From: Candidatus Uhrbacteria bacterium
Lineage (GTDB): Bacteria; Patescibacteriota; Patescibacteriia; UBA9934
Length of the DNA: 64,000 nucleotides
Assembly (NCBI GenBank): GCA_018673485.1
Contig: JABHCP010000002.1
Coordinates: 1,502 to 65,501, forward strand
Reading direction: 5' to 3'
The position numbers were made by a program, and so were the translations under genes. Positions 8,580-54,924 of the stretch are shown here, piece by piece. The number at the start of each line of letters is the position of its first letter. Position 1 is the first letter of the stretch. The notes below the pieces were generated by a model. That model was not told the DNA's origin and ran no database searches. It was given only the letters and a program-made list of their open reading frames with translations.

Positions 8580-8655
8580 TGGTGGATCCGACGGGAGTCG
8601 AACCCGCATCCTCTGGTGACAAGCAAGATGAGGTTACCATTACCTCTACGGACCC
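8580..8655 (-). tRNA. tRNA, probably Thr (anticodon TGT)
   Basis: RC GGGTCCGTAGAGGTAATGGTAACCTCATCTTGCTTGTCACCAGAGGATGCGGGTTCGACTCCCGTCGGATCCACCA; good acceptor, D and T arms; anticodon arm has one mismatch and C37, so the isotype call is tentative. Confidence 0.6.
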
Positions 8656-8768
8656 ATTTCCCTGAGCTAATAAAATAAAAACAAGGATTTGCGTCCTTGT
8701 TGTTATTTGTCACCAGAGGCGAGTTCTTTTATAGAACCTCATCTAGCACTTCTATTACAGCATCTGAA

Positions 8769-18391: not shown

Positions 18392-21274
18392 ATGACAGAC
18401 AAAAAGCGCGAAACTCATTCTCAAAAAGAGCACAAGATTGCTGATTATTGGGATAAAAACAAATGTTTTGAAAAGTCAGTAGAAAGTCGACCAGAAGGTA
18501 AGCCCTATGTTTTCTATGATGGCCCTCCTTTTGCAACCGGTCTTCCTCATTACGGCCATCTTGTAGGGTCGATAATGAAAGATGTCATTCCGCGTTATTG
18601 GACAATGAAAGGTTTTCGCGTAGAGCGCGTTTGGGGTTGGGACTGTCATGGGCTTCCGGTCGAGAATATTGTCGAGAAGCAACTTAAGCTTGGATCACGC
18701 CAAGATATTGAAAAGTTTGGTGTCGATAAGTTTAACGACAAGTGTCGTAATTGCGTTTTGACGTACGCAGAGGAATGGAAGAAGGTTATTCATCGATTAG
18801 GTCGTTGGATCGATATGGAGAATGCCTACAAGACGATGGATGTTGAGTACATGGAATCCATTTGGTGGGTGTTCAAATCGCTCTGGGACAAAGACATGAT
18901 CTATGAAGGGCGAAAGCCAATGCATATCTGCCCACGTTGCGAGACGGTGCTCTCAAACTTCGAGGTGACACAAGGTTATGAGGACGTAACCGACATTTCT
19001 GTAACTGTGAAGTTGAAACTGACTGATGGAAAGTATAAAGATGCATCACTTTTGGTTTGGACAACAACTCCATGGACTTTACCTGGAAATGTTTTGGCTG
19101 CTGTTGGGGCAGACGTTGATTATGTTGTAGTTCAAGTCGAAGATGAGAAGTTTATTATTGCTGAACCACTCGTGAAAGAGGTTTTGAAGGATGTTGAGTT
19201 TGAGCAGGTTGAAACATTGAAAGGTTCAGATCTTGTTGGCGCGACCTACGAACCAATTTTTCCTTTCTTTAAAGATCATGAAAATGCGTTTCGAGTTGTT
19301 GCGGCTGATTTTGTTACAACTGAGGACGGAACGGGGATCGTGCATATTGCACCTGGGTTTGGAGATGATGACATGCAACTTGGGCTTACGGAAAAGGTTG
19401 ATCCAATCATGCACGTCAATATGGATGGTACTTTTGTGCCTGAGGTTGCAGATCCGTTGCAGGAAGCTGGTTATGAAGTGAAGGATAGGCCAATGAAAGC
19501 AAAGGGCGACACCATGAGTGTTGATATTGAGGTTTTAAAATGGCTTGCACACAACGATAAGCTTTTCAAAAAGAAAAAAGTAGAGCACAGCTACCCGCAT
19601 TGTTGGCGTTGTGACACTCCGCTTTTGAATTACAGTACAAGTTCATGGTTTGTGCGTGTGACTGACATTAAGGAACAGTTAGTGCGAACAAATAAGGAGA
19701 TTAATTGGGTACCAGGGAACTTTAAAGAGGGGAGATTTGGAAAGTGGCTTGAGGGCGCTCGTGATTGGGCAATTTCTCGTTCACGATATTGGGGAACCCC
19801 GCTTCCAGTTTGGCGCGCAGAAGATGGCGAAACACTTTGCGTTGGCTCTAAGGCTGAGCTTGAGGAGCTCTCAGGTAAAAAAGTCGATGATCTGCATAAA
19901 CACATTGTTGATACGGTTGAGATTACGAAGGACGGAAAGGTTTACACGCGCATTCCTGAGGTATTAGACTGTTGGTTTGAATCTGGTTCAATGCCGTATG
20001 CACAATTGCATTATCCGTTTGAAAATAAGCAAAAATTTGAACAAGGGTTCCCGGCTGAGTTTATTGCCGAGGGGCAAGATCAAACGCGTGGTTGGTTTTA
20101 TACCTTGCACGTACTTTCAAATGCGCTTTTCAACATGCCTACATTTAAGAATGTGATTGTGAATGGAATTGTGCTGGCTGAGGACGGGAAGAAGATGTCT
20201 AAGCGTTTGCAGAACTATCCTGATCCAATGGAGGTGATGGATAAGTACGGGGCGGATGCTGTTCGATATTATTTGATGTCGACTCCTGTGGTGCGAGCCG
20301 AGAATTTACGGTTCAGTGAAGAGGGTGTGGTCGAGGTTTCTAAGAAGTTCATCAATATAATGAACAACGTGCTCTCATTTTATAAGTTGTATGCAAAAAA
20401 TGATGATGGACGAGCTCCATCGGGATTAAACGTGCTTGATAACTGGATACTTTCAAGATTGAATCAAACACTCAAAGAGCAAACCGAGGCATTGGACGGT
20501 TATGAACTTTCAATCGCAGCGCGCGTACTGCAGAGCTTTGTTACCGATCTTTCAACCTGGTACGTTCGGCGCTCAAGAGATCGATTTAAGGTTGAGGGTG
20601 AAGACCATGCCGAGGCGCTTGCTACATTGCGAGTGGTGCTCGAGACTTTCGCAAAGATGGTGGCCCCATTCATGCCTTACTTGGGCGAGGAGATTTATCA
20701 GGGAGTAACGGGAGAGTATAAAGATGAAGAGCGATTGAGTGTTCATCTGGAAGACTGGCCTCATATGGATTCGGTTGATGAGGATGTGCTCGAGAAGATG
20801 GGCCAAGCTCGCGCGATCGTTAGCCGAGTGCTTGAAGCTCGTGAAGAGGCAGGACGACCAATCAAGCAGGCATTGGGAGATATGACAGTTTGGACACCAT
20901 CTGGTGAGATCGTTGAAGATTATCAGGCCGTAATTTTGGGAGAGGTGAATGTGAAAGCTATGAAGGTTGAAAAGGGTGAGCTGAAGGTAGAGGTTGATAT
21001 GGAGCTAACGCCTGAGTTAATCCGCGAAGGAATGGCACGCGACATAACTCGTCGAGTGAACCAAATGCGCAAAGAGGCTGGTCTCACAATCAACGATCGG
21101 ATCGAGCTTAGAATGAGCTCAGAGTCCGATGAAGTTAAGAAGCTTTTCAAAGAGCACGCGGATACAATTAAAGATGGCACACTTGCAGATTCGATCGAGT
21201 TCACAAAAGACGAATCAGTAGAACGCAAGCAAGAAGTCCGAATCGCAGAACAAGAAGTTTGGTTGGGGTTCTAG
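18392..21274 (+). CDS. ileS: isoleucyl-tRNA synthetase
   Basis: HYGH (PHYGHLVGS) and KMSKR (KMSKRLQNY) motifs, 960 aa class I synthetase. Confidence 0.95.
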   Translation: MTDKKRETHSQKEHKIADYWDKNKCFEKSVESRPEGKPYVFYDGPPFATGLPHYGHLVGSIMKDVIPRYWTMKGFRVERVWGWDCHGLPVENIVEKQLKLGSRQDIEKFGVDKFNDKCRNCVLTYAEEWKKVIHRLGRWIDMENAYKTMDVEYMESIWWVFKSLWDKDMIYEGRKPMHICPRCETVLSNFEVTQGYEDVTDISVTVKLKLTDGKYKDASLLVWTTTPWTLPGNVLAAVGADVDYVVVQVEDEKFIIAEPLVKEVLKDVEFEQVETLKGSDLVGATYEPIFPFFKDHENAFRVVAADFVTTEDGTGIVHIAPGFGDDDMQLGLTEKVDPIMHVNMDGTFVPEVADPLQEAGYEVKDRPMKAKGDTMSVDIEVLKWLAHNDKLFKKKKVEHSYPHCWRCDTPLLNYSTSSWFVRVTDIKEQLVRTNKEINWVPGNFKEGRFGKWLEGARDWAISRSRYWGTPLPVWRAEDGETLCVGSKAELEELSGKKVDDLHKHIVDTVEITKDGKVYTRIPEVLDCWFESGSMPYAQLHYPFENKQKFEQGFPAEFIAEGQDQTRGWFYTLHVLSNALFNMPTFKNVIVNGIVLAEDGKKMSKRLQNYPDPMEVMDKYGADAVRYYLMSTPVVRAENLRFSEEGVVEVSKKFINIMNNVLSFYKLYAKNDDGRAPSGLNVLDNWILSRLNQTLKEQTEALDGYELSIAARVLQSFVTDLSTWYVRRSRDRFKVEGEDHAEALATLRVVLETFAKMVAPFMPYLGEEIYQGVTGEYKDEERLSVHLEDWPHMDSVDEDVLEKMGQARAIVSRVLEAREEAGRPIKQALGDMTVWTPSGEIVEDYQAVILGEVNVKAMKVEKGELKVEVDMELTPELIREGMARDITRRVNQMRKEAGLTINDRIELRMSSESDEVKKLFKEHADTIKDGTLADSIEFTKDESVERKQEVRIAEQEVWLGF

Positions 21275-37711: not shown

Positions 37712-37759
37712 CCTGAGCAACAAAACGCACCGCGGTTGCGATGCGTTTTGTTGCTCAGG
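37712..37759. terminator. long hairpin cctgagcaacaaaacgca ... tgcgttttgttgctcagg (18 bp stem)
   Basis: Directly 3' of the RNase P RNA on the minus strand. Confidence 0.6.
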
Positions 37760-38185
37760 AAACTATAAGCCGAATTCTGTCCCCGACATAGCTCGTAGAG
37801 CGATGGCAAGGGATAGTCATTTATCTAGAATGATCGTTGCCAATCATTTCAAGCGAGCTACCTAATTTGCTCTTGCACCAGGATGGGTTTACCACGCCAC
37901 TGCGTCACCGCAGGGCGAAATGCGTAGCCTGTTGAGATCATGTGATCTCAGACACCGCATTACTTTTCACGTTTCACTTTGCTTGGCAAAGTTAGTATTG
38001 TCTCTGTGGCACTTTCCCTAAGTTTCATCAGACTGGCAGGAACAGATAATCCAGTTCCTTCCACTCTCATTTATATCTTGGTTGCTGTTAGCAACATCCT
38101 TTTTTCACAACGCGTTACCGCGCAGTGGGTGTTCGGACTTTCCTCATGGCGCAAAGCGCCAAGCGACTATCGGATTTCCTGAACG
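37755..38185 (-). ncRNA. rnpB: RNase P RNA (bacterial type, rnpB)
   Basis: On the minus strand: GAGGAAAGUCCGAACACC (P4 5' strand), GGUAACGCG, GGGAAAGUGCCACAGAGA, and near the 3' end GGGGACAGAAUUCGGCUUAUAG (P4 3' strand); P1 pairing UCAGGAAAU / GUUUCCUGA; not in the ORF track. Confidence 0.7.
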
Positions 38186-53090: not shown

Positions 53091-53167
53091 GGGGCGTATA
53101 GCTCAGCTGGTTAGAGTGTCACATTGACATTGTGAAGGTCAGAGGTTCGAGTCCTCTTACGCCCACC
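53091..53167 (+). tRNA. tRNA-Val (anticodon GAC)
   Basis: GGGCGTATAGCTCAGCTGGTTAGAGTGTCACATTGACATTGTGAAGGTCAGAGGTTCGAGTCCTCTTACGCCCACCA; followed by terminator hairpin 53169-53203. Confidence 0.9.
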
Positions 53168-53208
53168 AACAAAGCCGTAGGTTAATACCTACGGCTTTGT
53201 TATTGGTC

Positions 53209-54162: not shown

Positions 54163-54264
54163 AAATAAAGTTGTAAGATTTTATGACCTGAGATTAGCCT
54201 ATTTTTTATGCTTTGTCAAGCCATCGCTATAAACAAAAACCGCAGAGTTAATCTGCGATTTTTG

Positions 54265-54341
54265 TGGTGGGTCTGGCTGGACTCGAACCAGCGACCACGG
54301 AGGTATAAGCTCCGCGCTCTAACCAACTGAGCTACAGACCC
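54265..54341 (-). tRNA. tRNA-Ile (anticodon TAT)
   Basis: RC GGGTCTGTAGCTCAGTTGGTTAGAGCGCGGAGCTTATACCTCCGTGGTCGCTGGTTCGAGTCCAGCCAGACCCACCA; perfect cloverleaf; anticodon loop CTTATAC. Confidence 0.75.
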
Positions 54342-54468
54342 GTATCATTTTTGTCTGTAGCGAAGTTGGTCGGGAACCAACTGCCTGCCCGCCGAAGCTC
54401 GAAGAGCGAAGGCGGGAGCTACAGACCCATTTTATCAGCCAATAATTTACCGCGAAAATCAGCTCTTG

Positions 54469-54924
54469 TCAATGCACGTGGAACTCGTTTATTTTTCCGA
54501 TCGCTTCTGGTTTGCTTTCATCAAGCTTTTCGTCTACCCATGATTGATTACGGGCGCGCGATAGGAATAGGAGTATGGAGCCGAGTGCGAGCAAGCCTAC
54601 AAACCATATCACTCCCATCACAATAATCGAGAGCATTCCGCAGGCCATGACAGATGCGAGTTGCTCAAATATATCGTTAGCTTGTACTAGGCATGATTGT
54701 ATTTCATTGCGTCCGAATACGTATGCGGTGTGTGAGGCGCCGTAAGCGCATCCTATTGAAGCCAATGTGAATAGGCAGCTGAATTGCGCTTTGCGTAACT
54801 TTGCCACTTTGAAAAGTGCGGCAATGGAAAAAATGATACCACCAACAATCCAGTACAGAACAAACCATACGATGCCAACTGGAATTAGTAGCATCCATTC
54901 TTGCATATTAAAAAGTTTCAACAC
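54469..54924 (-). CDS. hypothetical polytopic membrane protein
   Basis: 151 aa, 4 predicted TM helices. Confidence 0.45.
   Translation of the reverse strand: MLKLFNMQEWMLLIPVGIVWFVLYWIVGGIIFSIAALFKVAKLRKAQFSCLFTLASIGCAYGASHTAYVFGRNEIQSCLVQANDIFEQLASVMACGMLSIIVMGVIWFVGLLALGSILLFLSRARNQSWVDEKLDESKPEAIGKINEFHVH

Follow-up and report, generated by a model that had tools for sequence, protein, structure and literature searches.

tRNAIle2-UAU, an isoleucine tRNA that carries a UAU anticodon, has been studied in Mycoplasma mobile (PMC3575796), and tRNA-Ile(UAU) has been studied in Bacillus subtilis lacking tilS (PMC3919564). Partial tRNA genes are familiar from the borders of integrated elements, where they flank islands of 9-120 kb, usually with the 3' part of the tRNA duplicated (PMC9897764), and group I introns have been described at position 35/36 of tRNA genes in Patescibacteria (PMC13011429). 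Other structures that invite comparison are the trp-type attenuators and T-box leaders, in which four consecutive segments pair either as 1:2 with 3:4 or as 2:3; the quasi-palindromes and foldback rearrangements, in which a short segment recurs in direct, inverted and direct order around short loops; and the REP/REPIN sequences and MITEs, which are short GC-rich hairpins dispersed in many genomes. The locus reported here lies ahead of a tRNA-Ile(UAU) gene in 64,000 nt of DNA from Candidatus Uhrbacteria bacterium (Patescibacteriota), a stretch to which we refer as a whole as the window. Its upstream part is a conserved, structured and target-matched leader module that fits none of the families tested.

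The tRNA-Ile(UAU) part of the locus is already known biology. ARAGORN places a tRNA-Ile with anticodon tat at 54265-54341 on the minus strand, and the Rfam tRNA model scores the same interval at 74.2 bits against a gathering score of 29, with UAU at positions 34-36 of a cloverleaf whose anticodon loop is CUUAUAC. The first-pass annotation, which had named the gene from the loop CTTATAC, was correct on this point. Like the UAU-bearing tRNAs of M. mobile and B. subtilis, the tRNA reads AUA through UAU and not through a lysidine-modified CAU; unlike in those two cases, UAU is the norm in its lineage. An exact scan with the 17-nt anticodon arm across species-representative genomes gave tRNA-Ile(tat) for 92 among the at least 120 matches listed, mostly in Patescibacteria, where this tRNA is common and ordinary and the UAU form is the rule, not the exception; the earlier view of UAU as a rare solution to AUA decoding must be given up here. 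Since AUA codons are in real use in the window (200 ATA codons in 38 long ORFs, equal to 18% of Ile codons and 13.3 per 1000 codons), a dedicated AUA decoder is needed. Neither tilS nor tRNA-Ile2(CAU) was found within the 64-kb window. An IleRS-like class I synthetase, encoded at 18392-21274, is the putative source of isoleucine charging. The window also encodes a class A RNase P RNA at 37751-38182 on the minus strand (Rfam, 158.8 bits), which spans 432 nt against a model of 367 positions and so carries extra inserted sequence.

The features of the locus, in the order of transcription, are the following.

54444-54472, minus strand: sigma-70-type promoter, with -35 TTGACA at 54472-54467, a 17-nt spacer and -10 TAAATT at 54449-54444 (10/12 consensus matches)
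54416-54428, minus strand: sense copy of tRNA nt 1-13, GGGTCTGTAGCTC, present once more upstream of the tRNA; 5' strand of helix P1
54383-54418, minus strand: copy of the H hairpin repeat, with stem 54411-54416 / 54388-54393, core TTCGCTCTTCGAGCTTCGG at 54392-54410 and tail CAGGC at 54383-54387
54364-54382, minus strand: hairpin 2, in which AGTTGGT (54376-54382, sense D-loop nt 14-20) pairs with ACCAACT (54364-54370) around the loop TCCCG
54353-54370, minus strand: antisense segment ACCAACT-TC-GCTACAGAC, reverse complement of tRNA nt 3-20 (18 nt, 89%)
54342-54352, minus strand: A-rich spacer AAAAATGATAC, the immediate 5' leader at the RNase P site
54265-54341, minus strand: intact tRNA-Ile with anticodon UAU and encoded CCA (ARAGORN and Rfam)
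54231-54264, minus strand: intrinsic terminator, with stem CGCAGA..CTGCG at 54241-54257 and then a T run

An 87-nt module thus stands between the native promoter and the first base of the tRNA, made up of the sense copy of nt 1-13, the 37-nt H hairpin, a sense copy of nt 14-21, the antisense copy of nt 3-20 and the A-rich spacer. The promoter overlaps the stop codon of an upstream membrane-protein gene (54469-54924; 151 aa), and the 15 nt between the promoter and the upstream sense copy are the native leader. The H hairpin (CCCGCC..GGCGGG, spanning 54388-54416) stands at the exact boundary between copied nt 13 and copied nt 14 of the tRNA, its first bases overlapping the tRNA copy; beyond it, AGTTGGTT at 54382-54375 on the minus strand equals tRNA nt 14-21, with the last T doubling as the first base of the loop TCCCG. 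The antisense segment departs from the tRNA at a conserved TC/TC mismatch (54362-54363) and has two possible partners, namely the upstream sense copy, which yields P1 and hairpin 2, or the 5' half of the real tRNA. The inverted gtctgtagc, the D-loop-like hairpin and the cccgcc...ggcggg hairpin previously picked out from the letters are all present, the first of these as gtctgtagc/gctacagac at 54353-54361 versus 54418-54426 (9/9). The repeat of the tRNA 5' end is also there, but at 54416-54428 instead of the 54419-54431 first given, a shift of 3 nt. The suggested duplication of the tRNA gene extends to its first ~20 nt, duplicated once forward and once inverted, and not to the rest. Beyond what that reading contained, the hairpin proves to be a very widespread repeat, the antisense copy covers tRNA nt 3-20, and the arms co-vary in relatives.

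By our estimate, an exact 13-mer repeat within ~400 nt is expected ~0.001 times. The leader alone (99 nt) folds at -39.3 kcal/mol (z = -3.75), and 0/200 shuffles fold as well. These two results together argue that the features of the leader are not due to chance. An assembly artefact was ruled out by four independent assemblies (ENA, NCBI, JGI), which agree in every base of the 281 nt that run from promoter to terminator. Folded on its own, the leader has as its minimum-free-energy structure a three-way junction in which P1, the H hairpin and hairpin 2 meet. No promoter-like site was found inside the module. Rfam covariance models applied to the leader or the H hairpin returned no family, only tRNA matches and mirror-strand artefacts, and a group I intron or ribozyme in the module was rejected for want of a match at E <= 10. 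The arrangement also differs from that of an interrupted tRNA gene, as an uninterrupted tRNA is present and no splicing core was seen.

Syntenic loci in relatives, numbered here with the prefix L, were collected by way of the upstream membrane protein (151 aa) and its homologues; for the downstream lipoprotein, homologues were limited to the organism itself. The sites in L242, L246 and L247/248 are empty, that is, the stop codon is followed by 38-42 nt and then by an uninterrupted tRNA-Ile(UAU). In these three empty-site relatives the native promoter abuts the tRNA, whereas in the window it abuts the upstream copy, and the distance of the promoter from the stop codon of the upstream gene is equal in both. 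The upstream sense copy of the window begins 40 nt past that stop codon, where the empty-site relatives start the tRNA itself. The upstream copy therefore occupies the ancestral tRNA start, and the ancestral gene has gained 87 nt between its nt 13 and 14, although, given the 13-nt repeat, the same addition can equally be described as lying in front of the gene. Because the empty sites show a plain gene, the event amounts to a small insertion or duplication between promoter and tRNA, with the filled state adding only these 87 nt.

Filled sites have a scattered distribution. L044 carries the module ahead of tRNA-Ile(UAU) in DNA that is ~75% identical over the syntenic region, so that the persistence of the module spans ~25% sequence divergence. 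L241, the closest relative, has a partial module, its contig ending in the hairpin, and the promoter TTGACA-17-TAAATT is kept in both L044 and L241. L244 (GCA_900089805.1) has the module ahead of both tRNA-Ile(UAU) and tRNA-Val(GAC). L242, by contrast, is empty, though its relationship to the window is as close as that of L044. In a neighbour-joining tree built on the flanking protein, which as a single short gene is a weak guide, the filled loci share one clade with two empty sites, that at tRNA-Ile in L242 and that at tRNA-Val in L243, and filled and empty loci are interleaved. Within the window, tRNA-Val, tRNA-Ala and tRNA-Thr are without the module, and the promoters of the other tRNAs lie ~10-18 nt from the first base.

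The same comparison brought up several observations of a different kind. The contigs of L241, L242, L245 and L260, which come from independent assemblies, end in or beside this tRNA or its module, and such assembly breaks may reflect internal repeats or a filled/empty polymorphism in the population. L044 (CAYVLY010000002.1) is a 220-kb contig labelled 'uncultured Gammaproteobacteria', yet it is syntenic with the Uhrbacteria window and is probably a mislabelled or mis-binned MAG. tRNA-Ile(UAU) and tRNA-Val(GAC) are convergent neighbours in the clade (window 54265-54341 and 53092-53168; L246:1678-1868) and have the 5' stretch TAGCTCAG(T/C)TGGTTAGAG in common; in L246 they are 37 nt apart, with one bidirectional terminator common to both. 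As tRNA-Val, and not tRNA-Ile, follows the membrane-protein gene in L243 and L244, an inversion between the two tRNAs is implied. A different hairpin motif (GAGCACCGCA..GTAC..GTAC..GTTGAGGAGC-like) adjoins tRNA-Ile or tRNA-Val in Uhrbacteria-like relatives without a module of the window type (L243:3030-3110; L004, upstream of tRNA-Ile at ~2570-2690; L048:6990-7090; L247:2330-2440).

Four complete modules are available for comparison, ahead of tRNAs that start GGGTCTG, GGGCCCG and GGGCTCG (all Ile) and GGGCGTA (Val), and in 4/4 the sense and antisense arms match the cognate tRNA. Across these loci pairing in helix P1, between sense and antisense, reaches 97%, and 4 of its pairs have changed on both sides; in the 16-bp helix that joins the antisense segment to the real tRNA 5' half it reaches 98%, with both sides changed at 5 pairs, among them D-loop C16, which is specific to tRNA-Val. 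Two mutually exclusive helices are therefore each kept by compensatory change in the four loci. RNAalifold independently gives the three-way junction from the same loci, with 5 pairs carrying changes on both sides. A pairing of leader with trailer (54348-54363 with 54224-54239, 14/16) was dropped because inspection of L044 and L244 showed it to be conserved in neither. Loops and spacer have drifted between the window and L044, but the two agree throughout the TC/TC mismatch and 25 nt of the hairpin core; the mismatch is kept in all module copies. In the tRNA-Val module of L244, the sense D-loop copy stayed Ile-like and the antisense became Val-like.

The transcript can be divided into four segments, the sense copy (1), the antisense (2), the real tRNA 5' half (3) and the 3' acceptor strand of the tRNA (4). 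Nearest-neighbour folds of the full transcript favour 2:3 with 1:4 over 1:2 with 3:4 by 5.6-7.9 kcal/mol in 4/4 loci, so that the preferred full-transcript fold joins the antisense to the real 5' half and has the upstream copy in the acceptor stem. Since these energies favour the other fold, any insulating fold of the leader must be kinetic. The module resembles trp-type attenuators and T-box leaders in having four consecutive segments, with 1:2/3:4 or 2:3 pairing, both kept by compensatory change. Unlike them, it has no terminator/antiterminator choice, leader peptide, specifier or T-box motif and is sporadic, and the regulated 'gene' would be the tRNA itself, with segments 3 and 4 lying within the mature product. 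It resembles quasi-palindromes and foldback rearrangements in its direct-inverted-direct order of a short segment, its short loops and its arms that evolve with the tRNA, but differs from them in keeping a mismatch in all copies, in holding an unrelated conserved hairpin in one arm, and in being inherited over long divergence and at two tRNAs. Template-switch correction of quasi-palindromes is a DNA-level process. The concerted change of the arms could be due to it, to selection on RNA folds or to both, the non-Watson-Crick cells in the arms (mostly G-U) being too few to separate DNA templating from RNA selection.

The hairpin inside the module is found far beyond this lineage. Its 19-nt core has at least 120 exact matches in metagenome contigs, in GC-rich and AT-rich contexts alike, and the whole unit of ~37 nt reads CNYCCKCC-core-CGGRCARGNC. 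The window copy matches 17/18 flanking consensus positions, the last being A where the commonest base is C. The stem co-varies among copies (CCGCC/GGCGG, CCTCC/GGAGG, CCACCC/GGGTGG, CCATCC/GGATGG). Among the copies listed, 20/122 lie <=150 nt from a tRNA against ~3-4 expected (an estimate from the tRNA density of the contigs), and 9 begin exactly 4 nt after a tRNA CCA; with this spacing the CCA forms part of the H stem. Examples from the metagenome set (L121-L240) are L201:7868-7886, L203:1043-1061 and L175:86-104, to be set beside window 54383-54418. In metagenome contigs H sometimes occurs in tandem, and some copies, though not most, stand at the tips of longer palindromes. H as a general maker of inverted flank duplications was rejected, the median flank complementarity being that of the control.

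Copies of H are scarce close to home. The window has one in 64 kb, even when 3 mismatches or a relaxed pattern are allowed, so that within these 64 kb H does not behave as a dispersed repeat, and other Patescibacteria loci have very few in ~840 kb. A search of a plasmid collection gave no match and viral contigs gave only 5 matches in 2.9 million, by which a plasmid or phage element was ruled out. Like REP/REPIN sequences and MITEs, H is short and GC-rich, folds as a hairpin with a co-varying stem around a conserved core, and is dispersed in many genomes. REPs are species-specific, whereas the 19-nt core of H is exact across very different GC backgrounds; unlike REP/REPIN, moreover, H has one copy in 64 kb, shows no GTAG-type end or RAYT, is enriched directly after tRNA CCA ends and belongs to no Rfam family. 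Nor are the arms of the module terminal repeats of the REP or MITE sort, as they are copies of the target tRNA and not borne by an element, and there is no transposase in the window. Our literature searches on the hairpin sequence, nested tRNA genes and tRNA-adjacent palindromes found nothing relevant.

Partial copies of tRNA-Ile(UAU) are found in other forms elsewhere. Flanking partial tRNA copies occur at 16/83 testable tRNA-Ile(UAU) loci, 11 having them upstream, 11 downstream and 6 on both sides. In the typical nested layout a 5' half that ends CTTA(T/C) comes first, then an insert that holds a complete tRNA, then a 3' half that starts TATACC; this is a whole gene inside the anticodon loop (~35/36) of an older, decaying copy. 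Nested loci include L086:5350-5900 and L017:5630-5960, both on the minus strand, as well as L093:6530-6950, L015:6550-6950, L114:6610-6840, L112:7380-7710 and L060:620-860, with nesting up to three levels deep in L086; L093 and L015 have additional nested copies downstream. Within the inserts lie a hairpin module, the internal loops of which read GYGAG / CGARCGAA, and a tRNA flanked by a leader and a trailer that pair with each other as a rod. Models of group I introns and ribozymes gave no match on the nested loci. As with the group I introns of Patescibacteria, these are non-coding inserts in tRNA genes of the same phylum, and the nested tRNA-Ile genes are broken at about the same anticodon-loop position. 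Unlike those introns, the module and the nested loci have no group I core, the inserts are far too short, and an intact tRNA is present without splicing.

Some further loci may be mentioned here. GC-rich hairpins stand in the D-loop of decayed outer 5' halves at L117:3950-4035 and L030:3010-3100; that of L117 lies between nt 13 and 14, the same position as in the window, with different loop sequences. Certain tRNA-Ser genes have partial copies of their own ends in both flanks (L082:6262-6350, L092:743-1244 and L017:6152-6240, in tRNA-strand coordinates), and the phenomenon is therefore not limited to tRNA-Ile. In the window, a tRNA-Thr(UGU) at 8580-8655 on the minus strand, which has a low score (43.9 bits) and C at position 37, has ahead of it two stretches that are antisense to its own body (8707-8719 versus 8610-8622, 13/13; 8735-8747 versus 8623-8635, 12/13) and, just upstream, a D-arm-like TTAGCTCAGG (window 8580-8750, minus strand). 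This tRNA-Thr is absent from the orthologous site in two relatives, L261 and L262.

The reading that we favour, with moderate confidence that stops at an even balance, is that a genuine tRNA-Ile(UAU) at 54265-54341, the normal AUA decoder of its lineage, is preceded by a foldback-duplicated module that is co-transcribed as a leader, kinetically insulated and removed by RNase P, and that this module is a selfish or neutral rearrangement which is tolerated, not one that the tRNA requires. The module would have originated in a direct-inverted-direct (foldback) duplication of the first ~20 nt of the tRNA around a copy of the widespread H hairpin. It would be transcribed as the 5' leader of the tRNA precursor, as suggested by the promoter that is kept upstream together with the lack of one inside. 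With the leader made first, the sense copy would capture the antisense, because segments 1 and 2 emerge ahead of the rest and form a stable junction on their own. This modelled three-way junction of P1, H hairpin and hairpin 2 would keep the antisense from trapping the real tRNA 5' half, the tRNA would fold normally, and RNase P, the RNA of which is encoded in the window, would cut off the whole leader. The module would be heritable but dispensable. Deletion between the 13-nt direct repeats would easily explain its precise absence from some close relatives, and in one relative it would also have spread to tRNA-Val. The arms would go on matching the tRNA through template-switch correction, selection for the insulating fold, or both. 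In the simplest history the module was gained once, spread to tRNA-Val in the lineage of L244 and was precisely lost where the 13-nt repeats recombined, with repeated gain a possible alternative.

It is the sporadic presence of the module that leads us to regard it as tolerated and selfish or neutral; we count for its dispensability the empty relatives, the bare tRNA-Val, tRNA-Ala and tRNA-Thr of the window, and the interleaving of filled and empty loci. Against the favoured reading we count the preference of full transcripts for the non-insulating fold in all four loci, and the fact that it gives no account of how the arms were re-templated when the module reached tRNA-Val. The persistence over ~25% divergence and the conserved TC/TC mismatch also fit selection more easily than neutral drift. 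Because of this long persistence, this mismatch and the balance of alternative folds, a regulatory switch stays the main rival. Under it the module would be a cis-regulatory leader of the attenuator type, in which 1:2 with 3:4 gives a processable tRNA and 2:3 with 1:4 a trapped, tRNA-like long form, and in which temperature, transcription speed or a binding factor (perhaps on the H hairpin) would decide how much mature tRNA-Ile(UAU) or tRNA-Val(GAC) is made. We consider this possible but doubtful. The compensatory changes support both pairings across the four loci, the two folds lie within 5.6-7.9 kcal/mol in every one, the internal loop and the 25-nt hairpin core are invariant against a background of ~75% identity, the module has been retained through substantial divergence, and a second tRNA of the window, tRNA-Thr, also has antisense copies of itself upstream. 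Such a switch is, however, hard to reconcile with a module that is missing from L246, L247 and L242 (the last as close as L044) and from the tRNA-Val of the window, and present at the tRNA-Val of L244; no signal or effector can be named, and template-switch correction of quasi-palindromes could give the co-variation without selection.

We regard it as improbable that the module is an active, non-autonomous mobile hairpin element which inserts in the tRNA D-loop at nt 13/14 and rebuilds the 5' part by target-templated synthesis, each insertion yielding a direct and an inverted copy of the target. Such an element would suit the two different tRNAs with arms to match in the one genome of L244, the alternation of filled and empty sites among close relatives, the hairpins that the unrelated Patescibacteria L117 and L030 likewise have at 13/14 in their decayed outer copies of tRNA-Ile, the enrichment of H beside tRNAs and the breaks of several assemblies at the module site. 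On the other hand, H is a single copy in the window and very rare in other Patescibacteria loci, no transposase is nearby, and most H copies elsewhere are without target-derived inverted flanks. The Ile and Val copies of L244 diverge from each other as much as from L044, which argues against recent transposition, and we know of no mechanism that yields direct and inverted target copies in this way. The long form could in principle be the real product, the tRNA starting at the upstream copy and the 87 nt forming D-loop expansion hairpins or an intron-like insert. The minimum-free-energy folds of 4/4 transcripts do use the upstream copy as acceptor 5' strand, leaving the upstream AGUUGGUU single-stranded, and the promoter spacing fits the upstream copy. 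Set against these are the uninterrupted canonical tRNA downstream, the lack of any group I or other ribozyme signal in the module and the relatives that function with a plain gene. We also know of no bacterial pathway that would splice or tolerate such a D-loop insert, and hold this explanation to be very improbable. Least probable of all, and scarcely credible, is the scar of an integrase-mediated island or prophage (attL/attR type). This was the origin hinted at by the first-pass annotation when it spoke of a remnant of an integrated element. Integration into tRNA genes commonly leaves partial tRNA genes (PMC9897764), and the window does have a partial tRNA copy beside a complete one. Unlike at such borders, however, 87 nt and no island separate the repeats, it is the 5' end that has been duplicated, and there is an extra inverted copy. 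The module is conserved as a structured unit in relatives, and a search for integrase, recombinase and transposase domains in ORFs >=150 aa across the 64 kb found none, nor any mobile-element genes in the window.

Taken more widely, and as a conjecture that we think rather unlikely as a whole, small non-coding elements of a class not yet described may use the tRNA genes of Patescibacteria as targets, with hairpins at 13/14 and rod inserts at 35/36, and leave a functional tRNA by rebuilding it or supplying a fresh copy. Self-antisense leaders and nested tRNA genes would be the products, and the type seen in the window may also be a folding switch by which maturation of the AUA decoder is tuned. 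In the literature we found no description of a tRNA precursor with a forward and a backward copy of its own 5' half, matched over evolution and at two tRNAs. The UAU result corrects the impression of exceptional decoding in this lineage. The H hairpin, exact across phyla, enriched at tRNA ends and not in Rfam, offers together with the nested tRNA-Ile genes testable material on the invasion and repair of tRNA genes. If the module is selected, it would represent a new control of tRNA folding or processing in organisms whose regulators are very few. A neutral module would be a clean natural case of quasi-palindrome concerted evolution beside an essential gene, and would show how reduced genomes tolerate insertions into single-copy tRNA genes.
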